Assembly (NCBI GenBank): GCA_016706255.1
Contig: JADJJZ010000006.1
Span: 486,022-550,021, forward strand
DNA from: Bacteroidota bacterium
Lineage (GTDB): Bacteria > Bacteroidota > Bacteroidia > Chitinophagales > BACL12
DNA: 64,000 nt
Direction of reading: 5' to 3'
Under the pieces are notes generated by a model. The model was not told where the DNA came from and searched no databases. It saw nothing but the letters and a program-made list of their open reading frames with translations. Every line of letters starts with the position of its first letter. Position 1 is the first letter of the stretch. This document shows positions 37,708 to 59,359 of the stretch, piece after piece. The position numbers were made by a program, and so were the translations under genes.

Positions 37708-37712
37708 TTAAT

Positions 37713-43010: not shown

Positions 43011-43285
43011 AAGTAGTTGATTGAATACCGGCTGTCCGGTAAAAAAAGTACCTTTGCGCATAAGTTTAGTTTTTGGTCGCAAATCAAAACTAACACTTAT
43101 TGGGAGTTCTTCGGAGCTCCCTTTTTATTTATTATTATTTTTTACCGGACAACAGTGATGTACCAATGTGCAAATGGAACAGCCGGATTTAGAGTAAGAT
43201 TTTCATACGAAGCTCCGTTGGGAGCTATAAAAAATTAATTGCTGCTGTGCAAATTGAGCAGCCGGAGAATGCCCAATGTGCGGAT

Positions 43286-43440
43286 ACCAATGGAACAGCC
43301 GATTTTGAGTAATCATTTCATACGAAGCTCCGTAGGGGCTGACCCATGTGTCTGCCCAATGTGCTTCAAACCTGATAATTTGCTAATGTGGCAACCTCGT
43401 TGACTGCTGTTCGAACAGCCGATTTTGAGCACGATTGTCC
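43286..43440 (+). repeat. 155-bp direct repeat, copy 2
   Basis: See 31493-31647. A partial third core lies at about 43170-43225 and a diverged core at about 41780-41830. Confidence 0.9.
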
Positions 43441-43604
43441 TCTAACCTCCGAACCCCATCAGCTAATTTGCTAATCGGCTAATTTGCTAATTAACTAATG
43501 TGTCTCCACGTCAACTAATTGGCAAGCAGCCAATTATAAGCATGATTGTCCTCTAACCTCTGAACCCCATCAGCTAATTTGCTAATCAACTAATTTGCTA
43601 ATTA
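43433..43604 (+). repeat. Two 61-bp direct repeats with CTAATTTGCTAAT low-complexity motif
   Basis: GATTGTCCTCTAACCTC(C/T)GAACCCCATCAGCTAATTTGCTAATC..CTAATTTGCTAATTA at 43433-43493 and 43544-43604. Confidence 0.85.
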
Positions 43605-43610
43605 AAAGTA

Positions 43611-43883
43611 TTAATCTTTCTTCTTGATCTCAATCTCAGTAGTCCCGTCTTTAATCTCGATGCTGGTTTTGTTGTCACCATTTTTGTTTCCACTTTCGCA
43701 CCTTTTTCGCCAATAATGATTTCGGTAGATTTTTTGAGGGTCTTTTGTTTCTACTTCAACTGTTTTAGTTTCTGTAGTTGTTGTGGTTTCAGGCAGGGTT
43801 TCGGTTTCATCTACTTTCTTTTCAGAGCAAGACGCTAACACACCGGTAATTATTACTATAATGAATATTTTGATTTTTCTCAT
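43611..43883 (-). CDS. Small lipoprotein (hypothetical)
   Basis: MRKIKIFIIVIITGVLASC lipobox; Thr/Glu-rich. Confidence 0.4.
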   Translation of the reverse strand: MRKIKIFIIVIITGVLASCSEKKVDETETLPETTTTTETKTVEVETKDPQKIYRNHYWRKRCESGNKNGDNKTSIEIKDGTTEIEIKKKD

Positions 43884-44151
43884 TTACCAAAGTTACTCTA
43901 TTTAAGGCAGCATTTGCGTTTTGCGGTGCATTGTTTGATTATTTATTAGAAAGTAACCATTGAGGGATGTCTTATAAGTGGTTTTGTTGCAAAAATTTAT
44001 TATACTTCACAAAACTTGGCGAAAAATGAGATTCGAATTTTATTTGTTAAGCAACGGTAGTCTTATTTCTAGCCACATACAAAAGCATCTTCTTTTATAT
44101 GCATTTTTGCATTGTATTTGTAGGTTTGAAATCTAAGATTAATCCGATTAT

Positions 44152-44457
44152 TTAATGCATATGATGATGCTTTAGTTGGCAATATACTTCAATAACATAA
44201 TATGGAACAACATATAATAAATGGTCTTCATAATGATGTGGCATTAATTCATCACTTCCAATACCAACATCCTTTGTTAAATCAATCCCTAATTCTTTAT
44301 CAAGTCCTTTAAATTCATTTATGATGCTTTTTTAGTTGACCTAAATAATTTTGACAATCATTACAATTACATATAAAAGCCGGCTTATCCATATAATAAT
44401 CTACTGTGGATTGACATCAACATTTAAAATTATATTTCCGATTGCGATTTGTGTCAT
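44152..44457 (-). pseudogene. Cassette ORF (Cys-rich hypothetical), 2 frame disruptions
   Basis: ATG lies 8 nt after the GTCATAAC core. Pieces MTQIAIGNIILNVDVNPQ / YMDKPAFICNCNDCQNYLGQLKK / IINEFKGLDKELGIDL...HHHMH. Confidence 0.45.
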
Positions 44458-44465
44458 GGTTATTG

Positions 44466-44536
44466 GTTATGACGGTTTCGGGCTTTGCTATGGTCGACTT
44501 TTGAAACCAAAAACTGTCTCCCAGCACCATCATTAA
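44466..44536 (-). repeat. attC-like site (short, degenerate)
   Basis: Minus strand: TTAATGATGGTGCTGGGAG ... AGCCCGAAACCGTCATAAC. The arms are mutually complementary with bulges. Confidence 0.4.
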
Positions 44537-44853
44537 TTAATTAATCAAATTTTTTTTTTATACTGCCTGCTAACAAAGGCAAACCAATATTAGCAGGCAT
44601 TATTTCTATCCTTTTATAAATTTGTCGATTTTTCTTTTGTAAACATACCGATTGTTGTAAAACCTTTGCATTTTCTTCAATATCTCCGTTTTCTTGTCAA
44701 AGTGTGCATGCGCATTTGGTCATTTACAAAAATATTTATTTCGTCTATGCTGTCTGAAACATAAAAGTCAAATATGTTTCTGTTACCACCAAAAGGATAA
44801 AGCGATAGATGCTTACTAGTCAATTCGTTTTTTGGGATTTTTTACAAATCCAA

Positions 44854-45264
44854 TTAAAAAGTCCGCATGGTAAATATTTTATTACTGATTGTGTCCTGAA
44901 ACCGTATACTGAACCATTCTTGCTGTTCACCCCTCCAGTCAAACCATTTGATATAAAGTGTGTCACTGTGACCTGTTGAAGAAATTGTCTCAACACGGTT
45001 GTGATTATTAGTTGTGTCGAAAGTCAAAAAATATTTTTGATTTGTTTCAGTAAATACACCTTCTCCATACCAATATTGCATATCATCAGTACCACTATAT
45101 TGTATGAAAGTCCCAAAGTTGTCAGATTTGTTTTTTTAAATAAAAATATAATTGTTTGAAAACATTGATGCGTTCTCCTGTAGGTAAATAGTTGTGTCTT
45201 GCGCGAATAATTGCCCAATGACAGCCATGAATAATATTGTAAATATGATATTAAGTCGTTTCAT
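44854..45264 (-). pseudogene. Cassette ORF, secreted hypothetical, disrupted
   Basis: Signal peptide MKRLNIIFTILFMAVIGQLFAQ, then a stop inside an A-run near 45135. Coding-like frames continue down to about 44600. Confidence 0.45.
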
Positions 45265-45275
45265 TTATTAATGAC

Positions 45276-45367
45276 TGCTGACGGTTTAACACTTTGCGTT
45301 TTGAAAGCACTTCACTATCTTCCTCACAAACTTAATAAAAATTTCTACACTTGCTGTGCGGTTAGAA
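45276..45367 (-). repeat. attC-like site
   Basis: Minus strand starts TTCTAAC (45367-45361) and ends AAACCGTCAGCA (45276-45282). The next ATG is 11 nt downstream. It shares the ACGGTTT arm with the sites at 44466, 46630 and 59360. Confidence 0.45.
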
Positions 45368-45398
45368 TTTTTATCACTTCCATATTTTTTAATGAGTT

Positions 45399-46163
45399 TT
45401 AATAATGGAAATACTTTTCTCTCAATTGGTTTATCCAACGTTTTTCTTTATTGTCAGACTGCGCATTTGCGATATCATTTTGATCGTCTGCATGATTATT
45501 CAATTCTAAATCAAAACTTTCGTTTTCGTCTGGTGGTTGTTTCAAGTCTGCACCACCTTTGTGTGCAAATTGAATATAGTTTTTTGGTGGTGTAGGTAAT
45601 TTACTTTCACATTCTTTGAACAGAGATTTACCAGTAGAGGTAGAATGTCAGTACTACTGTTAACGAAATCCAAAGTTGATTTGTTTGCTCATAAGTCATG
45701 GACTTGTCACAAACACAACATTTTACAGTGTCGCTAAAATACCTAACTGGATTGTCTTTTAATGAGGGAAATTCCATTCTGTTTTCCAATTACCAACCAA
45801 AGCTCTAGTGCTTACTCTGCTGTGTTTAAGATTTTTACACCTTGTAATTTCATAAGGAAACCAATTTTAATTCATATGAAGTATATGGATCGAAATATTC
45901 AAGTAATTCCATTTCACCAATTTCCGGTGGAATACGTTTTAACTTACTGCCATAAAGCCAAACCTTTTTAACTTTTTTTAGTTTTGATATTGTCTCCGGT
46001 AATATGTTTATTTGGGCAAACAATTTTTCTCCAGGCTCTTCTACGGGGAAAATTCGTCACTGTTTTCTGCCGCAACCTTTTCAACATAATCGCAAAGTTT
46101 TTTCCAGGCAACAGAATTTCTGTCTTGAATATCATGCTCTATTTTGGACATATTTTTAACCAT
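45399..46163 (-). pseudogene. Cassette ORF: leucine-rich-repeat protein, several frameshifts
   Basis: ...LPETISKLKKVKKVWLYGSKLKRIPPEIGEMELLEYF... and ...FPSLKDNPVRYFSDTVKCCVCDK... are read in shifting frames. Confidence 0.55.
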
Positions 46164-46199
46164 TGTTTGTTTTTGCTTGGCAATGCGTCTATCCTTGTT

Positions 46200-46272
46200 A
46201 CTAAAGTTTTGGCGCTTGGCGAAGAATCGTATTTCAAAGCTATAATTCGTTTGCTTTTTTTTATTGTTACCT
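46200..46272 (-). repeat. attC-like site (truncated member of the TTTTGGCGCTT family)
   Basis: The stop TAA of the upstream ORF lies inside AGGTAAC. The plus-strand arm ACTAAAGTTTTGGCGCTTGGCGAAGAA resembles ACGACGTTTTGGCGCTTGACGAAAAA at 56543. Confidence 0.4.
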
Positions 46273-46612
46273 GTCAATTATTTTTATGTCCATTGATTCA
46301 CAATAACTTCGAATATATTCTTCTGTCCATCTATTTCCGTATTTTTGTCCAAGGCTTTGTGACACTTTTATATTATTGTCTTCAATTTCTTTTGTCATAT
46401 TACAACCCACACATTCTATTTTAAAACCATATTTTGTCTCAGGATGGTCAAGATTACAAAATGGACAACCGTCGCCCACATAAAATATATCAATGCAATA
46501 TTTTCGAGCGAATCCTTATTGTTTTATGCACTGTACTATCCGTCTGCCCATAACTACTTTGGCTAAGTGACAGCAATGTTGCGGTCAAGAATATTGTTGT
46601 CCACTTTGTCAT
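46267..46612 (-). pseudogene. Cassette ORF: secreted Cys-rich protein, one frameshift
   Basis: Signal peptide MTKWTTIFLTATLLSLSQSSYGQ starts 17 nt after the core at 46630-46636. The C-terminal 70 aa are in ORF 46267-46479. Confidence 0.5.
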
Positions 46613-46629
46613 TGTCGTTTTTGAATTGG

Positions 46630-46759
46630 TGCTAACGGTTTCAGGCTTAGCGTTCGTGTGCTTTTAAAAGCGAAAATTTTCTGAATTACCAAAGTTAATT
46701 AATTGCACAAATGTTTCTATGTGCACTGTTTACCCAATAACGCAAACCCCATATTAGGC
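46630..46759 (-). repeat. attC-like site
   Basis: Minus strand: GCCTAAT-ATGGGGTTTGCGTTATTGGG ... CGAACGCTAAGCCTGAAACC-GTTAGCA. It begins 4 nt after the stop of ORF 46764-47078. Confidence 0.6.
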
Positions 46760-46763
46760 GCAG

Positions 46764-47078
46764 TTAATTCCTTTTGTCTCCGCATGCAGCACAGAATGTC
46801 GCTTGTTTTGTCCTATATGGTTTGCCACAGCTTTCGCATGGTGGTCCATACTTTTCTATTCTGTGGTGCATTATTGCATTTGGCTCAGTTTCCTGAAAAC
46901 CTGTTACTTCAAAATAGTATTTCAAAAGTTCTTTAAATCGTTCTGGTTTATTGCTTAGACTGACCCCACTATTATTCATTCCTTTTCTATAAAGTAGATA
47001 GGCCTTTTGAAATTCATCTTCGTCAAGCATAGGAATTTCCATTTTACAACGCCAACACCAAAGTTTTTCATTCTTCAA
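46764..47078 (-). CDS. Cassette ORF: small zinc-ribbon protein (hypothetical)
   Basis: 104 aa, intact. CWRC ... CESCG ... CAACG cysteine pairs. Confidence 0.55.
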   Translation of the reverse strand: MKNEKLWCWRCKMEIPMLDEDEFQKAYLLYRKGMNNSGVSLSNKPERFKELLKYYFEVTGFQETEPNAIMHHRIEKYGPPCESCGKPYRTKQATFCAACGDKRN

Positions 47079-47325
47079 TTTCCATTTTAGGTGCAGTAAT
47101 TCTCATATTTCAAGTATTATATCCAACACACCCTGTAAGGCGAAGTTAATGTCTTTCCCAGTTTTTTATGTTGGCTACTAAAATTTCAAATTCGATAATT
47201 TTCGTATGGTCTACTGAATAGTCTTTTTGGAAAATTATTTTGCCATTAGCGAACAATATTGGATTTACAAAACCTTTTCTGCAATAGATATTTTGCATGT
47301 TTCCTGTTTATTAAATGAACTAAAG

Positions 47326-47580
47326 TCAGTGCAGTCTTTGTTCAGCGCCTTCGCTAAGGTATTTGTCGAAGTCAACCTTTTTCCAAAGGTCATTTTCGGA
47401 GATAAAGAATTCTAATTTCTCTGCTTCTTGCTTTTTGACAAGCTCAAAGTCTTTAATTTCTTCGCTTGTTGACGAGCCTTTCGCAAGGTAGTTGGTGATT
47501 GTTTGGATAGTTGCTCCAAACCTAACTTCGCCCTTTCCTGAAAAGAGATTTTGTAAATCATTTTTGATGCTTTTATGCAA
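47326..47580 (-). CDS. Cassette ORF fragment (hypothetical; possible decayed kinase-like gene continuing to about 47145)
   Basis: 84-aa ORF ending ...YLSEGAEQRLH. A further 50-codon ORF (MQNIYCRKGF...) follows in another frame. Confidence 0.35.
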   Translation of the reverse strand: MHKSIKNDLQNLFSGKGEVRFGATIQTITNYLAKGSSTSEEIKDFELVKKQEAEKLEFFISENDLWKKVDFDKYLSEGAEQRLH

Positions 47581-47640
47581 GACTCAAAGTAAGCACATTT
47601 TTTAATAAGTGCAAATGCCGATAGGTGGCGGTGAAATAAC

Positions 47641-47753
47641 CGGTAACGTATTGCAGCTACAAGTTGTGCCGCCATCCGTGAAGTTAAATGGTATAAGTCC
47701 ACCAAAACTTACAATACCGAAATGCGCGGCATAACTTGTCGGTGCTGTTAGGC
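47641..47753 (-). repeat. attC-like site
   Basis: Minus strand: GCCTAAC-AGCACCGACAAGTTATGCCGC ... GCGGCACAACTTGTAGCTGCAATAC-GTTACCG. It begins 5 nt after the stop of ORF 47759-48058. Confidence 0.85.
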
Positions 47754-47758
47754 GTAGT

Positions 47759-48337
47759 TTATTTAAATACGGGTTCAATGTCGTCGATCGTCCAATGTTG
47801 TCCGAGCTTACTTAATTGATATTTGTAATGATAGTCCGAAGGGAAATTAACTAATATTTCAGCAGAATTGGCGTCCTTTTTAAGAACGTCAAAATTAATT
47901 TTGTCCAACTCAGAAAGTCCGGGGTCTTCTTGACTGAATAAGATAAAATCGTATTCGAATCCTTCAGGCGGTCCGTCATTTGCTGGATGATCTTTAAACT
48001 GCTTGTCACACTTTTTAAAGTAGTCACGCCATTTGTCCGAATATTTATTTGAAAGCATGCCTGTCTCGGTTAGCGTCTTAAGATATTTTCTGTTGCAGGA
48101 AAGTTTAGCGTAAAATTTAGTTGAGTCCCATTCAGCGCCTGAATTACCGAAACTAAGTCACTGGCTAAATTAGTCCCATTGTCCTTGTACCATTTGAGGA
48201 AATTTAAAATTGTAGTCTCAGGGCTTGATTCGGCCTCAGATGTCACAAGTCGTCGACGCAGAATTTGTATTGTCTGCAGTCCTTGAACAAGAAAAAAATG
48301 TCCAGATTAATAATATGAAAATTGATGTCCTCTTAAT
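47759..48337 (-). pseudogene. Cassette ORF: lipoprotein (DUF3828-like), disrupted
   Basis: The lipoprotein signal ...SIFILLIWTFFSC starts immediately after the core at 48341-48347, with no canonical ATG. Frames shift before the intact 99-aa C-terminal ORF. Confidence 0.5.
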
Positions 48338-48340
48338 TAC

Positions 48341-48471
48341 GCCTAACGTTATGCAGATTTGCGACGGCGGGTCAGGCAACCGAAAATCTTTAATAAAATA
48401 CGAAGTTTTAGGTTATCGAAAATTAATCTGAGGATGGCGTCGCCCCGCTGGCGCAAATGTGCTTGTTAGCG
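48341..48471 (-). repeat. attC-like site
   Basis: Minus strand: CGCTAAC-AAGCACATTTGCGCCAGCGGGG ... CCCGCCGTCGCAAATCTGCATAAC-GTTAGGC. The TAA stop of ORF 48466-48714 lies inside the inverse core. Confidence 0.85.
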
Positions 48472-48763
48472 GTTGTTTTTCTTGATTAAAATTCTTGCAA
48501 AATGCACCGCCATTATTATTAAGATTTGTATAGGTAAAGCAATAAAAAACACAGGCCCAGCAAATATAAAGGGAGAATTTTCATTATCAAAAATAAAGAG
48601 AGCCAAAGGATAACCAATATTCCAAACAAAATGATTTGGATCAGAGCCTGTATACCTAAATTGCGGCACATTAAATTCAGGATAAAAGTCTATAATCGCA
48701 AAAAATAATTGCAAAAATGATTAACCATTTTAACCAGGGCTTCCTTTTGCTTTTCACTATCAT
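48466..48763 (-). pseudogene. Cassette ORF: small membrane protein, one frameshift in a T-run
   Basis: MIVKSKRKPWLKWLIIFAIIF... joins the 82-aa ORF (…FAIIDFYPEF…) after a 1-nt shift. Confidence 0.5.
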
Positions 48764-48904
48764 ATTTTTAATTCTGCTTCTCTATACAAAATTGGATTTA
48801 ATTTATGTTTATTTGGTTAATAAAATAAATCTCCAATCGTCTCATTCGATTTGCCGTATTAGTTGAAGGATTCATTTCATAGTACCCATATTGTTCTGAA
48901 TTAC

Positions 48905-49036
48905 CGCTAACGTTTTGCAGCTACAAGAAGTTGGCGATTTCGGAGACGAAAACTGTCTGCCAGCACTGAACTTGATACGAAGCACAAAGCTTCATTTAAC
49001 CACTGAACCGCCAATTTCTTGTAGGTGCTGTTACAG
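48905..49036 (-). repeat. attC-like site
   Basis: Minus strand: CTGTAAC-AGCACCTACAAGAAATTGGCG ... CGCCAACTTCTTGTAGCTGCAAAAC-GTTAGCG. The central TTAAATGAAGCTTTGTGCTTCGTATCAA is shared with 56543-56672 and 57385-57515. Confidence 0.85.
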
Positions 49037-49215
49037 GCTGGCGTTTTTTCTGTCGTGGTTTTTCTGTCCATTGTTATTGTCGTTTTTTGTGCGTTGGTTA
49101 GAAAGCTCTTTTGCAATTTTAGGTTTGCGAGTCGCTTGTGCGAATTGCAAATGTGCTTTTGGAGCGAAGGACCTTCCAAAATATAATGGTTAGTTAATTT
49201 CTTTTGCAATATCAT

Positions 49216-49995
49216 TCAGCCAACCAGAAGAAATGGCATAGCGTCTAAGGCCAAGAATTCAATTTCAGAATTTTTAGAGTCAATTACAAAATTTCTTATT
49301 GTCGTTTCAATAGCTATTTTTTTATCTTGGTCATTGTCATAAGAAAGAGCAACGTCTCTTAAATGTTCTCTAAATCTATCTAAAAGACTCCGTCTATTGT
49401 CGTTTAAGTCCTTTCTATCAATTTTGCACTTTTCGATTGTATAAGCAAATCTCACATTATCAGATTCAATAATTCCATTAACTTGAAATCTAATTTCACC
49501 AGAAGAATCGGTTATTTCAGGATTCACCATTTTTGGCAACTCAACTAAATCATAACTAGCAGAACTATTATTAATACTTCGCAAATTAGCTTCAGTGTTA
49601 TTAAAAGTAACTGCGGTACCTTCTAATTCAAAATTCACACCTTTGTTTTGGTTACATGTCGGACAAGATAACATTAAGTTGTCCCAAGAGAATGCAAGCC
49701 AATAGTAAGTAGCTTTAGGTCTATAATGTTCAACGTGATATTGCTCAACTTTTTGCTCACAAAAAGCACATGTACCTTTATAGATTGAAGTTAATCCGCT
49801 GCGGATTTCGGCCAACTTATATCTATCATTAAAAGGGGAAGTATCATTGTATGCTCCCGCATTAATAACAGACATCCTTTTTTCATGGGTTGTTCTGGAT
49901 TTTATTGGGACTCTTACTTGTCCTGGAAATAGATCAATAAACGCAGGTATTAGAGAAGCGGGAATTGCTGTCAGGTCTTTTTCTAGCTTGATCAT
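49216..49995 (-). CDS. ptuB: HNH endonuclease, PtuB-like (TIGR02646-type)
   Basis: 259 aa. CAFCEQKVEQYHVEHYRPK ... WDNLMLSCPTCNQNKG HNH core. Its start overlaps the ATPase stop by 4 nt. Confidence 0.75.
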   Translation of the reverse strand: MIKLEKDLTAIPASLIPAFIDLFPGQVRVPIKSRTTHEKRMSVINAGAYNDTSPFNDRYKLAEIRSGLTSIYKGTCAFCEQKVEQYHVEHYRPKATYYWLAFSWDNLMLSCPTCNQNKGVNFELEGTAVTFNNTEANLRSINNSSASYDLVELPKMVNPEITDSSGEIRFQVNGIIESDNVRFAYTIEKCKIDRKDLNDNRRSLLDRFREHLRDVALSYDNDQDKKIAIETTIRNFVIDSKNSEIEFLALDAMPFLLVG

Positions 49996-51778
49996 TTTTT
50001 TCCTAATTCATCATTAATAATTCGTTGAATTAATTCATCTATTTCATCGTCTTTGATGAATCCCTTGCCAGCCGCTTTTTGCTTTTCAAGTTCAACTTCC
50101 AGTTTTTTATTAATCCTGTATAACAAATAAGTTTCACTTGTATCAGAATTATTATCCTCAGTATTCATTCTAGAATCATCTAATCCAAATAGCGGAGATG
50201 TTAGAAGTGAGTTAATCATCAAATGATCTAAATTTTTGCGTAAATAAGGATCACTCACTCTCGTTTTACCGTCTTCTTTGTTTCGATAAACTCTAAACAT
50301 AATTGCATCTTCAGATGCTCCTTGAATGATTGTTGGGCTATGAGTAGTGAAAATAAACTGAACATTTGGAAATAGTTTTCTCAATTTGCCAATTATTACT
50401 CTTTGCCATTTTGGATGTAAGTGTAAATCAATTTCGTCTAATAAAACTATACCCTTTAAATCTGTAGGCGTATTTCCTTCGCCAGCATTTTTATTCAATC
50501 TATATAACAAGTCAGACACAAAAATTAAGATACTTTTGTAACCTTCCGATAGTTGATCAAATGTCAGAATCGTTCCTTTCTCCTTAAAAGTTACACCGCT
50601 TCCTTCGATCTTTATTTCAACATTTTTTTCCAATAAATCGAAAAACATTTTTTCAAGTAGTTCGACAGGGAATGAATTTGGTAGTTCTTTAATTTCACCA
50701 ATTGAATTATTTGCATCAAGATTTTTTTCTAGTTCTAATAATTTTTGGTCTTTTAACCATGAAACGGGATTCACTAGTGTTTGCTCGCTATCGAAAAGCG
50801 ACATAAAACCATATTCTTCTGGTTTATCAGTAGAATATCTTCCCGATGAGTTCCATAAGCAAAGAAATTATTCAAAATATTCCCTTTTTTGGGATTGTAT
50901 TCTTGGCCTTTATCATCAACACCAGACAGTCTGATGTTTTTATTATTTCTTATAATATCTGCGGCTTTTCCCGTTCCTTCAAGATCTGTCTTTTCGGTGA
51001 TAGAGTTTCCGTTAAAGGCAAGATAAATTCCCATCAGTATTAAAGATTTCCCATCTCCATTTTCTCCTAAGAAATAAATCTCCTTTGCTTTGTTGAAATT
51101 CAGATTTGTTTCTTCAACCGAAAAGAAGTCAGCAATCTCGACTTTTTCTATATAATTACTTTCATTGTCAATTACACCCTCCAGCCAAGACCTAAATTGA
51201 TCTTCAGAAATACTTAGGGCTTTATGGAAATTATTTGAAAAACATATTCTATAAAAATCATCGTCTCCGATTGCAACATTTGTAAACCTTGAGATGCGCT
51301 CAAGTAAAACTTGTTTAAAAAGTTTACCGACATTCGTGTTCTGTAATATTGGAGTAAAATCGTATGGAACATCTTGTGTACGCCTGTAAATAGGTTTAGC
51401 TGCCCCAGATTCTATTAATGCACTTCTAATATTTGTATATTGTTTCCCTGACTCGATTTTAAAAACACCTTTCATATCCCCAGTAGAATACTTCGAGGCG
51501 AATTCATCAACGATTTCCCCATGTGTAAAAAGTGTTGCGAATAAAGCAAAGAGTTTTTTTTCGTTAGGGTAATTCTGAATTTCAATCCAATAGCTTGGAA
51601 TAGGATCTTCAAGTGAATTAATTCCAAGAAAAGATTTAAGAATAGCTTCGTTAATAATAGCTTTTTTGCTTTTGAAATCTTCTATTATTTGCAAGCTTTC
51701 TATCACTTCCATAACTTGGACAATATCATACTTTGTCCAAGATGTTCTTTGTCTTTTGAAATCAACTTCAATACTCAT
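49992..51778 (-). pseudogene. ptuA: PtuA-like ABC/AAA_15-21-type ATPase with a ~220-aa uncharacterised N-terminal domain; one frameshift
   Basis: Walker A FLGENGDGKSLIL (ORF 50774-51778). Q-loop region, Walker B plus signature VLLDEIDLHLHP and THSPTIIQ (ORF 49992-50804). The frames join near the G-run at about 50855 (…AYGTH / GRYSTDKPEEYGFMSLFDSE…). Confidence 0.75.
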
Positions 51779-51781
51779 GAC

Positions 51782-53015
51782 TTATTTGCGTTTTGCGATT
51801 ATAAGATACTCTTGAACACTTCTACTTTTATCATCTTTTCTACCCATTATGTGTGTTTATATGCAACTTCTTTATAGTCTACATCATAATTATTACCCAG
51901 ATTCTTTTTAGCAATATCAATAATTTCATCTAAACTAATCATCCCCGTATTGCTATAGCTTAAAATTAAACTTGAGTTCTTAATTTTAATTTTTGCAAAC
52001 ATTTTTGCAAAAGCAGGTTTCACTTCTGTTCTCTTGCAGAAAGGGGATTGATGTCGATCTGATACCGACCTTTAAAATCAACTTCTGGATAATCATATTT
52101 TACTAATGTTTCCAACGCATGATAAAATCTTGAATAGTGGACGAAAGCATATGGCGGATCAGCATATACCAAAGAATTGGGTTCAATTTGGTCGAGACAT
52201 TCAAGATAATCTAACGATGTAACCTTATGATTTAAATTGTTCTTATCAAGATAGCCATGCAATATTTTGAACTTATTTATGAAATAAGGCAACATTTCCT
52301 TTTGTCTATAAATTAGAATGTCTGTCTTTGATGACAAGTTTGTCGCATCACGATATTGTGCATAATGACCCGTACTTTGAGAATTATATGACATCGCAAA
52401 CATTAGACTAGAGGATAACATAATGTAAAGGTGTATTTTTATATTCGTCAGCGACTTTACGAAGTGCATCTATCCATAAGCATTGCTGATACGACCAGTA
52501 AGTTCCAGAATAATATTTAATGAAAAGATGGTGTGATAAATTACCAAAATTAAATTCCATTAAATCTTGCTGTTGTTTTTCCAGTTCTACAAATTCTTTT
52601 ATCGTTTTCTTTTCTGAATAGGAAAAAACAAAATCGGGATATTTTTTTTTGACGGATTTTACATATTTAGTAGCCTTTTCAACAATTTCATCTAATATAT
52701 TTGATGGATATTTATCCCACTCGTAATTCGATAAATATGTATTTGCAGTATTGCCGAATATTCTTGAATGTCGTTGGAATGAATAGGAATTAACTTTCCT
52801 AATGCCCCTGATAAAATACTTGTTCCACCAAATAAGTCACACAACTTACCTTCTCGATATGTATCATTAATTGATTCTATAACAAAATCTAAGATATTTC
52901 TTTTTGATCCCATATATTTTATAATATGAGGAACACTCCTGTCGTATTTAGAAAGTAAATCAGGTTTCAAATTTCCTTCTAGAATTATAATGTCTAATGT
53001 TGCTGCTCTGCTCAT
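51782..53015 (-). pseudogene. DNA adenine methyltransferase (D12/Dam family), at least 3 frame disruptions
   Basis: N-terminal YMGSKRNIL and DLFGGTSILSG (SAM site), VYADPPY catalytic motif, and C-terminal ...ILSYSNTGMISLDEI...VQEYLIIAKRK in a third frame. The stop is 4 nt before the ATPase ATG. Confidence 0.8.
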
Positions 53016-53020
53016 TGTTT

Positions 53021-53242
53021 TTATTGAGTGTATTCTAATCTTTGTAGGAAAAGTGGTTCCCTCACATCAACATCTAGAACTTCTGCGATTTCAAAAAGTG
53101 TTTCCATTGTCGGTTGCATTTGGTTTGTACACCACTTAGAAACTGTAGTCCTGTTTTTGCCTAATTCTTCAGCAAGCCAGTTATTGGTTTTTCCCTGTTC
53201 CGCTAAAACAGCTTTAATCCGATTACACGCCTTTTTCTTCAT
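53021..53242 (-). CDS. XRE-family HTH regulator (controller-protein-like)
   Basis: 73 aa. ...KTNNWLAEELGKNRTTVSKWCTNQMQPTMETLFEIAEVLDVDV.... The stop is 6 nt before the methyltransferase start. Confidence 0.75.
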   Translation of the reverse strand: MKKKACNRIKAVLAEQGKTNNWLAEELGKNRTTVSKWCTNQMQPTMETLFEIAEVLDVDVREPLFLQRLEYTQ

Positions 53243-53265
53243 AAAAGAAGTCTTTTACATTAATT

Positions 53266-53286
53266 ATTCTGCAAAATAAGCAGAAT
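53266..53286. promoter_or_regulatory. Candidate operator (C-box-like inverted repeat)
   Basis: ATTCTGC-AAAATAA-GCAGAAT, 24-44 nt upstream of the HTH gene start. Confidence 0.4.
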
Positions 53287-53370
53287 CTGACAACTCTATT
53301 TTGTTCACATTCAGTCTAAAAGCTAAATAATATGCTTAATTAGTATCATAATTCGTCTATTGAGCATAAA

Positions 53371-53676
53371 ATGAATATTTTGAAAAAAATAAAGACTTGT
53401 TTAAAAGTCTATCGCAACAAAAAAATGCTCTTTATGAAAGCTAAGAACAAGAAAAAACTTATTCTATCTCTGATCAAAGATGATTTAATAAATGCCAAGC
53501 TAGTAAATGGTTTGAATGAGATCGGTCTGAATGCAGATAATTATTCTCTGCACCTGAGCGATACAATTTTTAACCTCATGAGATTTGAGGATAACGAGGA
53601 AACGGAAACAACTTTCGAACGATATATGGAGTTGGCTAAAGAGATCAATGTTCATAGATATTTCACAGTCTCATAA
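53371..53676 (+). CDS. Hypothetical protein (only plus-strand ORF in the cassette region)
   Basis: 101-aa ORF. Probable start at an internal Met (MLFMKAKNKKK...). Confidence 0.4.
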   Translation: MNILKKIKTCLKVYRNKKMLFMKAKNKKKLILSLIKDDLINAKLVNGLNEIGLNADNYSLHLSDTIFNLMRFEDNEETETTFERYMELAKEINVHRYFTVS

Positions 53677-54320
53677 GCCTATGGATGATTTAGCTTTACA
53701 AATTTATACTGAAATATTGTCTCGAAAGCCCAATGATTAATATTATTGCGGGTGGGTGATTTGGCTCTTTTGATTTTGCCTTTTGTGTCGGCTCGTGCGT
53801 TGGGGGCAAAAGCAAATGTGCCAAATGTGTGTCGGCAAAGTCGAAATGTGTCGGGTTGCAATAAATTGTCTACGGAGATAAAATAAACATTTTTGTCGGA
53901 ATGTAAGTCGCCCGATTTTTAGTAGGAATTGTCAAGGTTGCACTGTCGTCCGACGCTTGCCCTATAACTTGATTATTTGAGAAGTGTTCCCCAAAAAACC
54001 TCTCCAAATCCTACTTCAGTGCTTGAATCAGTAGGTTTAACTTTTTAAAACTACCTCTTATTTTTTTATTCAACCATTTAATAGCTACAAATTAATTTGA
54101 CCTTAATCCGAAATGTTTTACCACCTCAACGCATTCAACCCTACCACATCTTTCAATCTCTAATCCTGGAGCTAAATGCTTTATCAGTATTTTAAAAAAT
54201 TACCGCTCCAAATTCACGGAAAACCGTTAATCTTAAAATGTCACATTTTTAAAATTACGAACGCAATAAAATCAATACTTTTGGGCAAATGGGATTCATT
54301 TTCGCCACTTTACCATGTCA

Positions 54321-54432
54321 CACTGAAGTAGAAGCTGTTTTTTGCACCGCAAAAAATCCACTTCACTTAAAATAGAACATTTATCCTTCCAACTTTACTT
54401 AAGTGGCAGCAAAAAACAGCTTCACTTTAGTG
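54321..54432. other. Long imperfect hairpin in the ORF-free zone
   Basis: CACTGAAGTAGAAGCTGTTTTTTGC (54321-54345) pairs with GCAAAAAACAGCTTCACTTTAGTG (54409-54432) with 1 mismatch and 1 bulge. An inner 6-bp stem CCACTT/AAGTGG is also present. Confidence 0.6.
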
Positions 54433-54804
54433 CAAGCACTCAACCCTTTTCATTCCAATAATATTCCCGATTTCTATTTATTTCCATGCATCTTCATCTT
54501 TCTTTATATTTTAAAGAAACTTTCGAAGACTCCGTCGAAGTTTATGGGTTCAAGATGCTCATCATTAAACTCGGTAATGTCATCAATTTTATTTGTCGTG
54601 TTAAATAATACAATGTCCCAGCTCATATTACTGTAATTTTTGAATTTGTTAAAAATGGCACAGTCGTTTTTTTATTTGTCACTTGAAATTTCTTCTCTAT
54701 CTATTAATCCTTCTTTATTCGTTGGCTCTTCTTCGTTAGCAGATCTATCAAATAAATTTCTTAGTCTTCTAATTTGCCTTTGCCTATTAAAAGTTTCATC
54801 ACAG

Positions 54805-55241
54805 CTAAGTTGGTAAAAAAGCTAATATCCAAATTCCGATTGTTGATAAAGTTGACAAGCCATAAGCTGCAGAAATCATGCTAATCAACATAAATGAAAT
54901 AAATCCGAGCCATGAATAATAACTTGCTTGTTTAGATTTTAAAACATAACCGTCATCTCTAAAATTTTGCCTTACAGCAAAGGAAACCAAATAAAAAAGA
55001 ATAGATTTTTTTGAAGGAAATTCAAGTCATCAACAATGTTATATCTAATGCGTTTGACTGCTTTCTCAATTTGGTCGTTTTTATAATTTTTAATATCGTC
55101 CTCTGAAACATTTCTTTTTGATATTTCTTCTAAAGCAACAGTTACTGCTGTTTCGGTATAGCTAAATTTTTCATCAAGAATTTCTAATAACTCTTGAGTT
55201 GAAAGTTTTGAATAAGTTTCTTGTAATTCTTCTCGTGTCAT
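54805..55241 (-). pseudogene. Cassette ORF: membrane-anchored hypothetical, one frameshift
   Basis: ORFs 54972-55241 and 54805-54990 join across an A/T run (…DDLNFLQK / …VSFAVRQNFRDDGYV…). Confidence 0.5.
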
Positions 55242-55342
55242 AATAAAATGGTTAACTTTTGGAGCTAAAGAAAGTGCATAATAAAAACTTCCTAACTGTC
55301 TAATTGAACTAAAGGTATAAAATGTTCCAAGTTCATCGCAAG

Positions 55343-55420
55343 TGCAAACAGTGTCTTACCGCTGAAAATTTGCGCATGCAATTTACACTTACCTCCGCAT
55401 TTTTTTAGCCTGCGTTACCA
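55343..55420 (-). repeat. attC-like site (short)
   Basis: Minus strand: TGGTAAC-GCAGGCTAAAAAAATGCGG ... GCGCAAATTTTCAGCGGTAAGACACT-GTTTGCA. It starts 1 nt after the stop of the upstream ORF. Confidence 0.4.
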
Positions 55421-55421
55421 G

Positions 55422-56013
55422 CTAACGTTTATTTTTTCTAGCGTCTGCTCGCATTCCTAATTCCATTTCAAGTTGTGCTTGCCAAAATCCGTCTTCGGAT
55501 GTTGTTCGGTTGTCAGCAAGTTTCAACCTTTGTTTTAGTGTTTCAAATTGTTCGTCAGTAAAGTTGGAGTTTATGAAAGCGTCTTCGCCATTTTCTTTTT
55601 GAACAGTTAAAACAAAGTCTCGGTAAATTATTAAACAATTTGTCAACGTCTTGATAGAACAATTAAAAAACCGAGATGAAAAATAATCTTCGTGGTCAAG
55701 CCATTCTATTTCGTCATTTTGTCTGTATTAATAACTATCGCGTCACCGTCAGCGCATGAACCAATTACTACATACTTTTCGTATTCAGATTCAAGAAAGT
55801 CGTATTGGGTAGTCAGTTTATTTATACCTTCATAAAGATCATTGGTGTTTTTGCAAACGATAAAAACGGTGCTGCCTCAACCGGTAGTCCAATGTTGGTT
55901 AAAAAGTCTATTGTGTCAGGCTTGAGATTTAAGTTTCTAAGACTGTCTTTGTCGATTGGAGAAAGCTTGTCGCCTGTTGATGTCCAAATATTTTTAAATT
56001 GGTCTGAAGTCAT
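55422..56013 (-). pseudogene. Cassette ORF: SUKH-superfamily (SUKH-4-like) immunity-type protein, multiple frameshifts
   Basis: ...FLTNIGLPVEAAPFLSF..., ...YVVIGSCADGDAIVINTD..., ...WLDHEDYFSS... and the C-terminal ORF 55422-55646 lie in different frames. ATG is 11 nt after the core at 56025-56031. Confidence 0.55.
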
Positions 56014-56024
56014 TTTACGCTTGC

Positions 56025-56154
56025 TGTTAACGTTTGCGTTTCTGCAGCGGTGACTTTCGAAGCCGCGGCCTGTCCCACGAAACAAAAGTGTTGAACGAAG
56101 ATAAAACTTTAAATCAACAGGTCACAGCACCAATGCAGAAACATACTGTTATAC
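56025..56154 (-). repeat. attC-like site
   Basis: Minus strand: GTATAAC-AGTATGTTTCTGCATTGGTGCTGTGAC ... GTCACCGCTGCAGAAACGCAAAC-GTTAACA. Confidence 0.8.
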
Positions 56155-56348
56155 GCAGTTAATTTATACGTCCCACTTGTTTTGAAACTTGTATATACTT
56201 GTCAGACATTATAAAATCTACACAGTCGTTAATCATTTGTCTTAGAGTCCTTTTTCATTTTCAATTATTTTTGTCCCCAGTCCGCACCATTTATTGCAGA
56301 AATAATTTTTGATTCTAACGCTGACCGAATTCCTATTTCTTTTTTTGT

Positions 56349-56531
56349 CTAGTAGCAAACTTCAGGGTAAGGCAAATTGTCGCGTTTCTCTAAGTATGCT
56401 TTTTGCACAAATTCTATTTCAAAAATTTTAGATTCTTTGTCCATCATTAACAATGTCACTGAACCACCGTCCATCCAAGCATGAACCTCCTCAATAGTCA
56501 ATTGTCCTGTAGGGTTGAATAATCTATCCAT
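56349..56531 (-). CDS. Cassette ORF (hypothetical)
   Basis: 60 aa. ATG is 11 nt after the core at 56543-56549. The TAG stop is followed by 27 further sense codons in frame. Confidence 0.4.
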   Translation of the reverse strand: MDRLFNPTGQLTIEEVHAWMDGGSVTLLMMDKESKIFEIEFVQKAYLEKRDNLPYPEVCY

Positions 56532-56542
56532 ATATTAATCAA

Positions 56543-56672
56543 GCACGACGTTTTGGCGCTTGACGAAAAAGCGGATTTCGAATCACTAAATTGTCTGGCA
56601 GCCCTATTTGATACGAAGCACAAAGCTACATTTAAGTAAAGAACCCACTTTTTTGCCAAATGCAGGATATGT
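56543..56672 (-). repeat. attC-like site (inverse core degenerate)
   Basis: Aligns along its length with 57385-57515 (…TTAAATGTAGCTTTGTGCTTCGTATCAA…GCCAGAC…AAATCCGCTTTTTCGTCAAGCGCCAAAAC-GTCGTGC). Confidence 0.6.
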
Positions 56673-56676
56673 GCCT

Positions 56677-57375
56677 CTATTCGTTGCATATGTCAATTAT
56701 TTTATGACTTTTTTGTTTCCAAGTATTTGTCCTTATGTTAAGTTGGTAAATGTGTTCACCTAAACCACAAACGCCTGCAGGCACGTACGTAATCAAAGTG
56801 TTGCTCTTATTTTTTATTTTTGACGGAAAATAAGTCATTGAGTCCGTCAAGAATTTATTTAAAGTGAATTTATTGTCTATGCCTTGCAAGTAATAGCTAT
56901 AAAATGTCCCACCATTTCCACCAGAATCATTGATTACTGCTATGTCGTCTTTATTATCAAAGTTTAGGTCAGCAACTATTAGGTCGCCATAATAATTATC
57001 AACTACTTCTTTGTCGAGATTAATTTTGGTAGAGTATGAAATAACATTTTTACAGTTCATAAAAACGTCCCTGAAATAAAAGTGCGAGCTTACTGATATA
57101 TTATCAATCACTTTCTTTGTGGTCTTGTCTGTAAGGAACAATTTAACAATACAGGAGTCATGATGCTCTTTGGAATTTGTGTGTCGCTCAAAATTAACTT
57201 TAATGTCAAACTGTTCAGATAGGTTCAAGTGCTCACACGCTGTACTTGTAAAGGAATCGTATATTGACATAGGTTTAGTCATAGAAATTATTGAATCAGT
57301 ATTTTCAAACTGTTTAGATTGTTTTGTTGAACAACTGTAAATTAATATTGTTAATATGAATAGTGTTTGTTTCAT
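56677..57375 (-). CDS. Cassette ORF: lipoprotein with FG-GAP/VCBS-like motif
   Basis: MKQTLFILTILIYSC lipobox starts 9 nt after the core at 57385-57391. DLNFDNKDDIAVINDSGGNGG motif. The ORF-track start at 57465 lies inside the attC-like site and is probably spurious. Confidence 0.6.
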   Translation of the reverse strand: MKQTLFILTILIYSCSTKQSKQFENTDSIISMTKPMSIYDSFTSTACEHLNLSEQFDIKVNFERHTNSKEHHDSCIVKLFLTDKTTKKVIDNISVSSHFYFRDVFMNCKNVISYSTKINLDKEVVDNYYGDLIVADLNFDNKDDIAVINDSGGNGGTFYSYYLQGIDNKFTLNKFLTDSMTYFPSKIKNKSNTLITYVPAGVCGLGEHIYQLNIRTNTWKQKSHKIIDICNE

Positions 57376-57384
57376 TTTAGTGGC

Positions 57385-57515
57385 ACATAACGTTTTGGCA
57401 CTTAGCACAAAAGCGGATTTAGAAGCACTGAATAGTCTGCCGGCACTTACCTTACTAACAAGCACAAAGCTTCATTTAACCGCTGATCCCGCTTTTTGCT
57501 AAGCGCCTGTTAGGG
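57385..57515 (-). repeat. attC-like site
   Basis: Minus strand: CCCTAAC-AGGCGCTTAGCAAAAAGCGGG ... CCGCTTTTGTGCTAAGTGCCAAAAC-GTTATGT. Confidence 0.85.
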
Positions 57516-57575
57516 TAGGTTTTATAAATACAAAATTTATATTAGAAAATAAGGCTGGGTCTTGAATTGCAATCA

Positions 57576-57819
57576 TTACAACTCAGATTTTTCCCAGAAA
57601 ATTTCTAATTCATTATTAGCGCAAAATGCTCTTTCAAGTATGTTCACCAACTCATTATCTGCTCCGTTCTCACGGAATGTTCAATATGCTTAGGTCTAAC
57701 CAATATTCCTGATCATCTTTACTTTCTTCCTCAAGTTGATCAATTAGAAATTGTAACTGCATTTCATTAATTAAGCCAATTTCCTGGTTTGTCTCTTTGT
57801 TTTTTAATTTGTACATCAT
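57576..57819 (-). pseudogene. Cassette ORF: small acidic protein, one frameshift
   Basis: MMYKLKNKETNQEIGLINEMQLQFLIDQLEEESKDDQEYWLDLSILN then a shift to ...ENGADNELVNILERAF..NNELEIFWEKSEL. Confidence 0.5.
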
Positions 57820-57968
57820 TAAATTAGATTTTAAAATTATTGTTTGTTTCGTTTTTTAGAGTGGTCTCTGGACTCCACTATTATTGTTTGTGGAAAATTA
57901 AATTCATGAATTGTCGATCTGAATTGTTAGTCGAATATTTCTTGCCTCAATATGTCTTTTAAATTTGC

Positions 57969-58097
57969 ACTTAACGTTTGTGTTTATGACGGCAGGTTTT
58001 CGAAGAGCGTCACTGCCCCATTTTGCTGAACGAAATTAAGAAAACAAAACTTAAAACCTACACATCACCCCAAGCTGGCATAAACATTTTGTTACCT
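57969..58097 (-). repeat. attC-like site
   Basis: Minus strand: AGGTAAC-AAAATGTTTATGCCAGC ... CCTGCCGTCATAAACACAAAC-GTTAAGT. Confidence 0.8.
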
Positions 58098-58110
58098 GCT
58101 GTTTCTAGCA

Positions 58111-58763
58111 CTACCAAAATTTCCAAAAAGGTCTTTTGTCGTCCTTTATTTCCGATAATATTTGAACAACTCTTTCTTCCCCCCAATCCTGGTCATCAGG
58201 TATCTTCTTCCAGTCAATATCTTTTATTTCTATCCGTTCATCGGCTGACCCCGACCAATCAACTTTGAATCCATTCTTCCTTAGTTTTCAATAATTTTTT
58301 GCTATCAGAATCGCTTCATTGTTCTCCTCAGCTGTTAAAGCCAAGATACAAGCTCCTTGATTCTGGATCAACCGCTCTTCCCAAATCTTGAGAATGATAA
58401 TAGCAAAAACCTACTGCTTTAATTCCAAGCTCATCAAGTCTCTCTATTGTCTCCATACAATCTTCCTCACCGTCTGATCTTGTAAAACCCCACATTGTGC
58501 AAACAAACAATTCTTTCAGATATAAGCTCATCGAATATTTTAGCAAGCCGTTCGAAGTCGGTAGGATGTGTCCAGTGAAGACTTTCACTTTGATGTTTTG
58601 AATACCTATCCGATATTTTATCTTAAACCAAACCCTCGTCAAAATCACTTTCGTCATAAAACATTTCTCGAATACTTTCAAAAGTTCGTCTTCATTCTCA
58701 AAGCCAAACTTTATGTCGAGCTCTAATTGGTCAATGGCTTCTTTCTTTATTTCACTCTGTCAT
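58111..58763 (-). pseudogene. Cassette ORF: DUF6891-like (immunity-type) protein, several frameshifts
   Basis: ...GFTRSDGEEDCMETIERLDELGIKAVGFCYYHSQDLGRAVDPESRSLYLGF... then ...AEENNEAILIAK... and ...KNGFKVDWSGSADERIEIKDIDWKK... in other frames. Confidence 0.5.
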
Positions 58764-58789
58764 ATCTAGTGGCTAATCAATGAAATAGC

Positions 58790-58922
58790 TGGTAACGTTA
58801 TAGATTTGCGATAGACGGGCGGTTTTCCATTACAAATGTTCATTCTAAGATACAAACTTTCTGTAACCACAAAACCGTTCAGGAGCGGTAAGCCCCGCCT
58901 ACGTTAAAATGTGCTGTTATGC
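58790..58922 (-). repeat. attC-like site
   Basis: Minus strand: GCATAAC-AGCACATTTTAACGTAGGCGGGG ... CCGCCCGTCTATCGCAAATCTATAAC-GTTACCA. Confidence 0.8.
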
Positions 58923-58932
58923 GTAGTAGTCC

Positions 58933-59319
58933 TCAGTCCCGATTGGCGTCAATTATTTTTTTAACGAATTCTCTTCCATTAGTCAAACTTTCATCACCTC
59001 GAAATTCACTTGTTTCGATTGTTCCGTCATTAAAGACTTCTATTTCGAGTCTTGCCCCAACAATTGTTACACAAATCATTACGGAATTGTCTCTGGTACG
59101 TTCTAATTGATAGTAAATTTTGGCGCTGTCAAGTTCTTCCAATATCTAATAGAGTGGGTGATTGCTTTTGATGGTTTTCAGTTTCTTTATTATAAAACCA
59201 ATCACATAGTCTGGCTGAGTAGTAATGGAAAGGTCTTTGTTTTTGACAAGCTCTTTCAAAGCCTTCTCAACAGTTTTCCACTCTTTCAAAGATTTATATT
59301 CAACGTATGGTGACTTCAT
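58933..59319 (-). pseudogene. Cassette ORF (hypothetical) with an in-frame TAG, or two short ORFs
   Basis: MKSPYVEYKSLKEWKTVEKALKEL...SNHPLY-TAG(59146-59148)-ILEELDSAKIYYQLER...; a continuous frame of 128 codons. Confidence 0.45.
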
Positions 59320-59359
59320 GATTTACAATTTATTCGGATACGGATGGTCTTCCTTTACG

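Follow-up and report, generated by a model that had tools for sequence, protein, structure and literature searches.

Does an adenine DNA methylase packed against a pair of Septu genes belong to the defence system, or is it a chance neighbour? The question is raised by four minus-strand genes in a 64,000-nt stretch from a Bacteroidota bacterium (Chitinophagales, BACL12; contig JADJJZ010000006.1, positions 486,022 to 550,021), which is hereafter called the window. These genes encode a helix-turn-helix (HTH) regulator, a D12-class methylase, a PtuA-type ATPase, and a PtuB-type HNH nuclease. Septu is among the commonest anti-phage systems, and the target choice of PtuAB is debated; proposals include DNA nicking, loss of tRNA-Tyr, ATP sensing, and a role of phage proteins. 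If PtuAB is firmly tied to a methylase and to an extra protein domain throughout a clade, such a clade would offer a handle on this targeting, and it predicts a methylation-gated DNA-targeting mode.

From sequence comparisons, we estimate a probability of about 0.6 that the region is a cassette-borne, restriction-modification (RM)-like Septu variant. The family would consist of Septu parts that work like an RM system, and its methylase-linked form is apparently new.

The gene block and its relatives

The genes of the block are as follows.

53021-53242, minus strand: XRE/C-protein-like HTH regulator, accessory (Pfam HTH_3, E 6e-12)
51782-53015, minus strand: D12/Dam-fold N6-adenine DNA methyltransferase, 413 aa if repaired (MethyltransfD12 and PADLOC MTase_II on fragments)
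51164-51778, minus strand: 205-residue N-terminal domain of PtuA (N-domain), family-specific, proposed reader or adaptor (homologue conservation, AlphaFold2 model, profile search)
49992-51163, minus strand: ABC-ATPase body of PtuA (PADLOC PtuA, E 1e-42; AAA_15/AAA_21)
49190-49995, minus strand: PtuB-type HNH nuclease in its ancestral extent; the open reading frame (ORF) as written stops at 49216 (PADLOC PtuB, E 4e-38; Pfam HNH, E 3e-7)

An earlier note, made from the window sequence, had placed the four minus-strand ORFs at these coordinates, with the HNH ORF at 49216-49995, and profile searches bore out each of its family assignments. All the motifs that it listed were found in the sequence (YMGSKR, DLFGG, and DPPY in the methylase; GENGDGKS and LLDEIDLHLHP in the ATPase; CAFCE, HVEHYRPK, and CPTCNQNKG in the nuclease). 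The 4-nt overlap of ptuA and ptuB also stands; the two gaps upstream, given as 6 and 4 nt, are actually 5 and 3 nt. As written, ptuA is read as two ORFs in two frames, 50774-51778 and 49992-50804, which are the two halves of one PtuA; the repaired protein has 595 residues.

The reading of the ATPase and the HNH nuclease as a Septu pair held, as the profile searches returned PtuA and PtuB (the PADLOC matches above) and no non-Septu family. The body of PtuA carries a Walker A motif (GENGDGKS), an ABC signature (LSEGYKS), a Walker B motif (LLDEIDLHLHP), and an H-loop (TTHSP). A profile of the ATPase family, compared with the PDB, matched the PtuA of retron Ec78/Eco7 best (E 5e-28), followed by Septu PtuA (8ee4, E 7e-21). 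The best matches in NCBIfam were PtuA, PtuB, and TIGR02646, each under its cut-off: TIGR02646 narrowly so on an intact PtuB homologue (51.8 bits against 52.15), and the retron models by a wide margin (138 against 500 for retron PtuA, and 60.6 against 150 for retron PtuB). NCBI annotates the truncated PtuB of the window as a 'TIGR02646 family protein', and intact relatives of 268 aa exist at 90% identity or more. On these scores, the two proteins are of the Septu type and not equivalogs of the retron pair.

For the methylase, an intact homologue scored 50.9 bits with Pfam MethyltransfD12 (PF02086), the DPPY, FxGxG, and KYMGSK motifs are conserved among relatives, and the best PDB matches of an AlphaFold2 model were Escherichia coli Dam and DpnM. 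The repaired methylase of the window is 98% identical to the intact proteins P0121/P0122.

To examine the linkage of these genes, we scanned GTDB with a single genome for each species, which gave 65 loci, and then compared these loci with the four repaired proteins by tblastn. At least 120 full-length homologues aligned with the repaired PtuA from end to end, at 63-86% identity. The first 205 or so residues of PtuA match no family, yet they are covered in these homologues. In all 24 loci in which PtuA bears the N-domain, a methylase (48-87% identity) lies directly upstream on the same strand, whereas none of the approximately 41 loci with a short PtuA, which lacks the N-domain, has the methylase. 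PtuB follows directly downstream of the long PtuA wherever the contig continues. All genes are intact in the 20 complete three-gene loci, except for PtuB in one of them (L008). The packing is also kept, with a methylase-PtuA spacing of -17 to +9 nt in these 20 loci and an overlap of PtuA and PtuB of 4-17 nt in 19 of them. The catalytic motifs of all three proteins are conserved in the relatives, and those of the PtuA ATPase are invariant across the 19 intact loci. Most of the hosts belong to the Bacteroidota (Chitinophagaceae, Sphingobacterium, Kaistella, Chryseobacterium, Saonia, Aequorivita, Dysgonomonas, and others); Akkermansia and genome bins of Methylococcaceae and Burkholderiales were found outside this phylum.

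These counts bear on the possibility that the genes are fortuitous neighbours, that is, that an orphan methylase or one from an ordinary RM system came to lie beside a standard two-gene Septu in a defence island or a cassette array. Defence genes do cluster, and the PADLOC models class the parts of the module simply as PtuA, PtuB, and MTase_II of a generic kind. However, the association of 24 of 24 against 0 of about 41 loci extends over at least three phyla with conserved packing, the N-domain occurs in the census only where the methylase is present, and the 41-86% identities among related loci exclude a single, recently spread clone. On this count we rejected fortuitous adjacency, which is extremely improbable. 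The adjacency of methylase and PtuA, whose conservation the earlier note had proposed to check, is therefore not unique to the window genome. The conserved core is three genes: the methylase, PtuA with its 205-residue N-domain, and PtuB.

The HTH gene lies outside this core, because it was seen upstream in only about 8 of 23 related loci. It falls into at least two unrelated sequence classes, each with its own palindrome upstream. That of the window is the following.

53267-53285, minus strand: palindrome TTCTGC-N7-GCAGAA, candidate operator, 25-45 nt 5' of the HTH start codon (sequence inspection)

The same palindrome is present in the metagenome contig L066, which is near-identical to the window here and thus gives no independent support. 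In the second class (L004, L006, L017, and L022), the palindrome TCTCA..TGAGA occupies the same relative position. One protein of 487 aa (P0193) has an XRE HTH fused to the N-terminus of the methylase. To judge from its sequence, this fusion speaks for a functional link of the regulator with the methylase and would fit autoregulation of the methylase side. The controller-type HTH is accessory, and the palindrome is a candidate for its operator.

Two further candidates for membership, a MORC-like block (in L004-type loci) and a DndB-like protein (in L008/L012), were rejected, since they have no N-domain and occur in three to four loci each. The block lies directly after PtuB in L004, L005, L006, and L017 (four genera, at about 10.7-14.0 kb), where it consists of three conserved genes for a 507-aa MORC-like HATPase_c_3 protein and two uncharacterised proteins. 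An HATPase_c_3 protein also adjoins a methylase/BglII pair in Priestia (L069). The block may be another defence system that travels with the module.

The N-domain of PtuA and the proposed mechanism

What could the N-domain do? An AlphaFold2 model built with 36 sequences was mainly helical, with a predicted local distance difference test (pLDDT) score of 90.5. A fold search with this model gave no structural neighbour and hence no hint of function, the best PDB match having an E value of 0.47 and the best viral predicted structure (BFVD) one of 0.6. The N-domain has no relation to the extension at the N-terminus of retron PtuA, as there was no fold match even though retron PtuA structures are in the PDB library.

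A profile search against 1.84 billion representative proteins was more informative. It yielded 113 clusters, in which the N-domain is nearly always N-terminal. The partners were PtuA-type ABC ATPases (585-620, 727, and 817 aa); numerous proteins of about 375 aa whose C-terminal halves carry the D-x10-ExK motif typical of PD-(D/E)xK nucleases; McrB-type GTPases (AAA_5 and McrB_lid), with McrC as the next gene; and proteins that contain domains resembling Hjc and DndB. The fusions of about 375 aa gave nothing in Pfam and NCBIfam beyond weak Hjc/Endonuc_Holl matches. An adenine methylase, either D12 or MT-A70, adjoins the N-domain proteins of types other than that of the window in eight of the nine loci checked. 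The loci are as follows.

L068: McrB-like N-domain protein (hhalign probability 99.9% for the domain), with a methylase of the same D12 clade
L070: 379-aa N-domain nuclease, with a methylase of the same D12 clade
L071: N-domain McrB/McrC, with a methylase of the same D12 clade that is split into two ORFs
L072/L073: N-domain DndB fusion, with a methylase of the same D12 clade
L075: 727-aa PtuA, with a methylase of the same D12 clade at the contig edge (last 65 residues only, 43% identity)
L076, L077: N-domain nucleases of about 375 aa, with methylases of the unrelated MT-A70 family

The full-length D12-clade methylases beside these other architectures are 50-61% identical to that of the window.

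We favour a DNA or methylation reader over a domain that docks on one methylase, because the N-domain pairs with two unrelated methylase folds. More broadly, and with slightly less than an even chance in our judgement, the 205 residues would form a hitherto unrecognised domain, always with an N6-adenine methylase gene next to it, that reads unmethylated DNA and plugs into no fewer than four unrelated effectors (PD-(D/E)xK nucleases, McrBC, DndB/Hjc fusions, and PtuAB). If this is true, Septu ATPase-HNH complexes, so far associated with abortive infection, can also act as methylation-gated restriction enzymes. The earlier idea of an RM-style self/non-self layer on a Septu effector gains independent support, as a predicted function, because the N-domain is met again on classical effectors of the restriction type that have adenine methylases as neighbours.

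The following mechanism is proposed for intact copies. The methylase would mark the host's own DNA. The N-domain of PtuA would direct or license the ATPase-nuclease complex on DNA without the mark. The ATPase cycle of PtuA would then control PtuB, which would nick or cut the unmarked DNA. We infer protection by methylation, DNA reading by the N-domain, and DNA as the target from the gene associations described above.

Several points weigh against this RM-like mechanism. According to published work, the PtuAB of Septu and retrons probably acts by abortive infection with depletion of tRNA-Tyr, and in vitro it showed plasmid nicking only, and no sequence-specific restriction (PMC12819146, PMC13096335). 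The N-terminal extension of retron Ec78 PtuA docks on the reverse transcriptase and thus has a protein-protein role (PMC12819146); therefore, an adaptor role is a live alternative for the N-domain of the window. The N-domain is roughly neutral (median isoelectric point 6.8) and has no recognisable DNA-binding fold; its charge as such argues neither way on DNA binding. Pairwise identities over 19 loci showed that the methylase correlates alike with the N-domain, the ATPase, and PtuB (r 0.59-0.62; partial 0.20-0.25), so that co-evolution of specificity between methylase and N-domain would receive no support from these correlations. Finally, the ninth locus with another N-domain architecture (L074) has no methylase on its short contig.

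The retron comparison suggests a guard or toxin-antitoxin logic, in which the methylase or its methylation would hold PtuAB inactive via the N-domain, and interference by a phage would release PtuAB and lead to cell death or arrest (abortive infection) in place of restriction of foreign DNA. In retron Ec78, PtuA's N-terminal extension, which is absent from stand-alone PtuA, contacts the partner encoded by the adjoining gene, and this partner sequesters PtuAB until phage attack (PMC12819146). Retron PtuA proteins are also the closest solved relatives of the window ATPase, and an N-domain that is not basic would suit such a role. However, the presence of the N-domain on PD-(D/E)xK nucleases and McrB/McrC, beside two unrelated methylase folds, fits shared DNA recognition better, and the methylase clade also partners ordinary BglII-family endonucleases. 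We regard the guard logic as unlikely, at slightly more than one chance in five.

The pairing with BglII-family endonucleases was found in L071 (2481-4456) and L069 (1925-4616), once with an HTH gene of its own; therefore, the clade behaves as an ordinary RM methylase. In L071, a single methylase is flanked by a BglII-like enzyme and an N-domain McrBC pair. The BglII partners hint that the target of the methylase may resemble a GATC-containing site of the BglII/BstYI type; we do not claim this target. The match to the Dam/DpnM fold was rejected as a source for the target, as an identity of about 12% is too distant.

The module has a mosaic structure. The window and L066 are 97-99% identical through the regulator, the methylase, and most of the N-domain, as against 71-80% through the ATPase body and PtuB. 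The switch, near 51350, is a sharp recombination breakpoint inside ptuA (window about 51250-51400, L066 about 11650-11800), and the 3' half of the window module is closest to another locus, L078 (up to 98%). Each of the two halves, specificity and effector, therefore recombines as a unit. If the plug-in reading above is true, the specificity half (regulator, methylase, and reader) and the effector half (ATPase and HNH) would recombine separately, with integron cassettes among their vehicles. The movement of regulator, methylase, and N-domain as one recombination unit could also be explained by a Type III-like complex, in which site recognition would fall to the methylase alone and the N-domain would serve only to dock the effector on the methylase, so that one complex acts on unmethylated sites; the swapping of very different effectors would be explained as well. 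This arrangement is improbable in our view, and less probable than the guard logic, because N-domain proteins also pair with MT-A70 methylases, which have no fold-specific surface in common with D12 enzymes, and there is no excess co-variation of methylase and N-domain. The charge of the N-domain and the co-variation analysis do not discriminate among the reader, guard, and Type III-like readings.

The cassette and the state of the window copy

Is the module itself a mobile unit? The earlier note had seen an attC-like site downstream of the HNH gene and had suggested that the whole 4-kb module may be a giant cassette. The attC-like site is confirmed by its hairpin and its repeat family, and comparison with L066 supports a cassette of about 5 kb. 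The features of this unit besides the genes listed above are the following.

48904-49038, minus strand: attC-like site that closes the cassette, from R'' (..TGTAAC..) to R' (..AAAACGTTAGCGG) (hairpin fold, nhmmer profile)
53371-53676, plus strand: 101-aa ORF on the opposite strand, within the cassette (block common with L066 at 81-92% identity)
53962-53968, minus strand: GTTATAG core, an R'-type box at the 5' boundary of the cassette (homology with L066 starts exactly there)

The inverted arms of the attC-like site (48917-48939 and 49006-49028) are 87% complementary, and its single-stranded DNA folds into an imperfect hairpin (-24.9 kcal/mol, z -3.6). It matched the nhmmer profile of the attC-like family of the window with an E value of 1e-31. 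The attC sites were compared directly and by means of an nhmmer profile, in place of a covariance model, as MAFFT aligned them poorly.

In L066, the block 9053-14009, which corresponds to 53961-49021 of the window, lies between two attC-like sites. At the 5' boundary, where an attC-like site ends in L066, the sequences are ..AAAAC|GTTACAGGCAAGC.. in L066 and ..ATCAA|GTTATAGGGCAAGC.. in the window. Because the L066 block sits between attC-like sites and the homology begins at the GTTA core, a cassette of about 5.06 kb (53968 to 48904), including the opposite-strand ORF, is supported. This 101-aa ORF had no match in a Pfam search. The 3' end does not follow the textbook pattern, since the homology with L066 stops inside the attC-like site after its first 20 nt or so, on the R'' side. 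When the window site (49016-48904) is set against that of L066 (14009-14120), the remainder of the L066 site resembles another site of the window, 59366-59512 (88%). This swap of attC sites between the copies is unexplained by an R' core crossover alone. For integron biology, a 5-kb self-regulated defence operon that travels as a cassette would be unusually large.

The surroundings agree with such an array. The region from about 43 to 59.5 kb of the window (43000-59520) is an array of attC-like sites, all oriented with the minus-strand genes, and it contains many small ORFs. Matches of the nhmmer profile were obtained on one strand only, at 59494, 58926, 57515, 56673, and 49040, with partial matches at 46252 and 44529; the five full-length matches are the sites from which the profile was built. 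On one side the array is flanked by what is left of a transposase gene (DDE_Tnp_1 fragment, 41941-42273), and on the other by panC (60954-61661). There is no integron integrase in the ORF lists of the window and no attI in the window; the integrase may lie elsewhere or may have been lost.

Two adjacent 100-nt direct repeats, 83% identical and 111 nt apart, were found at 43395-43605, ending in motifs of the type GCTAATTTGCTAAT, and shorter repeats related to this pair occur at 43186 and 43301. A Flavo-1 small RNA (Rfam RF01705, 53.8 bits) at 15194-15266 is independent evidence that the genome is of the Bacteroidota. By exact matches of its proteins (MBK7441994 to MBK7442049), the window lies on a 1,147,475-bp contig of a metagenome-assembled 'Bacteroidetes bacterium' that is closest to Chitinophagales bins.

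The window copy of the module is damaged. We mapped the damage by alignment to the intact loci L001/L002, L066 (with 97-99% identity in the methylase), and L078 (with 85-98% identity in most of the 3' half). The deletions are as follows.

near 53051: 2 nt, HTH gene; the C-terminal tail is altered
near 52747: 1 nt, methylase gene
near 52414: 2 nt, methylase gene
near 52062: 4 nt, methylase gene
near 51852: 1 nt, methylase gene
near 50845: 1 nt, ptuA; breaks a stretch that is read AYGTHRGRYSTD in relatives
near 49250: 1 nt, ptuB; the last 19 residues or so are replaced (the ancestral protein of 268 aa ends at 49190)

The single frameshift in PtuA had been noted before, as had at least three disruptions of the methylase, of which we mapped four; the deletions in PtuB and in the HTH gene had been missed. 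With these seven small deletions, none of the four genes is left unaltered or unbroken, and the window copy therefore cannot work as written.

Whether the breaks are biological is another matter. The module may be intact in the organism, and the seven deletions may be errors of metagenome assembly. The source is a metagenome-assembled genome (a contig of 1.15 Mb), the module has suffered deletions and no other kind of event, the methylase apart from its breaks has 98% identity to intact copies, and similar single-base deletions occur in other conserved genes of the window (two in kdpB, and others in kdpC, a histidine kinase gene, and a glycogen-synthase-like gene). On the other hand, the first 33 kb or so of the window are without sign of disruption, as judged from the ORF layout only, the breaks cluster in dispensable genes, and two of the module deletions (2 nt and 4 nt) fall outside homopolymers. 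We put assembly error against real decay at roughly even odds, with assembly error very slightly the less probable. The interest therefore lies in the family and not in the window copy, because the latter is either non-functional as written or mis-assembled.

The other damaged genes are as follows. In the kdp operon (35116-37146 and 37150-37900), kdpB is read in three ORFs, with CCC reduced to CC near 35545 and AAAA to AAA near 36735, and kdpC (in the region 37150-37900) is frameshifted by a single-base deletion. The histidine kinase gene (40015-41535) is broken several times. The single-base deletions of the kdp region reflect either genome decay or indel errors of the assembly. The glycogen/starch-synthase-like gene (61931-62750) encodes 248 aa, whereas the 30 members of its cluster have 273 aa; its early end is due to the loss of single G residues at two places near 62674, with the last 24 residues in another frame.

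Comparison with known systems

Is the family a known system under another name? The stand-alone PtuA-PtuB pair, Septu type I, was reportedly described by Doron et al. in 2018. The window family shares with it (structures 8ee4/8eea) an ABC ATPase that bears AAA_15/AAA_21 signatures and whose gene overlaps that of the TIGR02646-type HNH nuclease after it. It differs in the obligatory D12 methylase upstream and in the 205-residue N-domain, both of which are absent from the stand-alone form. At the protein level, the family is thus Septu in both its ATPase and its nuclease; it is not a self-sufficient two-gene system, as the methylase and the N-domain accompany it in 24 of 24 loci. Current annotation tools would call an ordinary Septu and a solitary methylase. 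Stand-alone Septu has been described as controlled by the ATP level or by phage proteins, and not by DNA methylation (PMC12819146, PMC12065111).

In a limited search of the literature on Septu/PtuAB and methylases, we found no description of a methylase-linked Septu, in line with the earlier remark that the arrangement was not recognised as a described subtype. A passage in PMC10853773, citing Krishnan et al. 2020, mentions an MTaX1 'methylase-associated' domain; this might overlap with the N-domain and would then amount to a prior partial description.

The closest solved relative of the window PtuA belongs to retron type I-A, or Septu type II (Ec78 = Eco7), which consists of a reverse transcriptase, a noncoding RNA, PtuA, and PtuB. 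There, too, an N-terminal extension of PtuA links to an adjoining sensor or regulator, and the PtuAB effector has been co-opted by an added specificity module (PMC12819146). In the window family, however, the added gene is a DNA methylase, and the N-terminal domains are unrelated. No reverse transcriptase is present in the ORF list of the window, and an Rfam search of the window gave Flavo-1 only and no retron RNA. Since reverse transcriptase and noncoding RNA are both missing, the region is not a retron of type I-A.

A methylase-containing gene set that is associated with Septu loci has been described as Hma (helicase, m5C methylase, and ATPase), which is often adjacent to Septu type I (PADLOC paper, PMC8565338). 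Unlike the window family, Hma forms an operon of its own, in which the three genes include those for a cytosine-5 methylase and a helicase, and it often lies away from Septu. The window family has a single adenine methylase packed against ptuA, and PtuA itself is modified.

The specificity half resembles a Type II RM system with a C protein, in that it has a Dam-fold methylase (DPPY, FxGxG), an optional upstream HTH gene with a palindrome, and a methylase clade that pairs with BglII-family endonucleases. It differs in that the restriction role would fall to a two-protein ATPase-HNH machine and in that the regulator is absent from most loci. As a mobile unit, the module resembles an integron cassette or CALIN (cluster of attC sites lacking integron-integrases) element, with its 3' attC-like site, its boundary at a GTTA core, and its position between attC sites in another metagenome. 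It is far above the typical size of a cassette, as it has about 5 kb and five ORFs, and probably a promoter and a regulator of its own.

In LlaJI/McrBC-like RM systems, a methylase is combined with an NTPase subunit, which recognises unmodified DNA through its N-terminal domain, and with a nuclease as a separate subunit. This is the closest logic to that of the window family, and the same N-domain and methylase clade occur with McrB/McrC-like genes in L068 and L071. The motor of the window family differs, being an ABC ATPase and not an AAA+ GTPase, and so does its nuclease, which is HNH and not PD-(D/E)xK. If the proposed reading is true, self/non-self modules (a methylase with its reader) and effector modules are exchanged as cassettes among restriction enzymes, McrBC-like systems, and Septu, and the line between RM and the newer defence systems is blurred.

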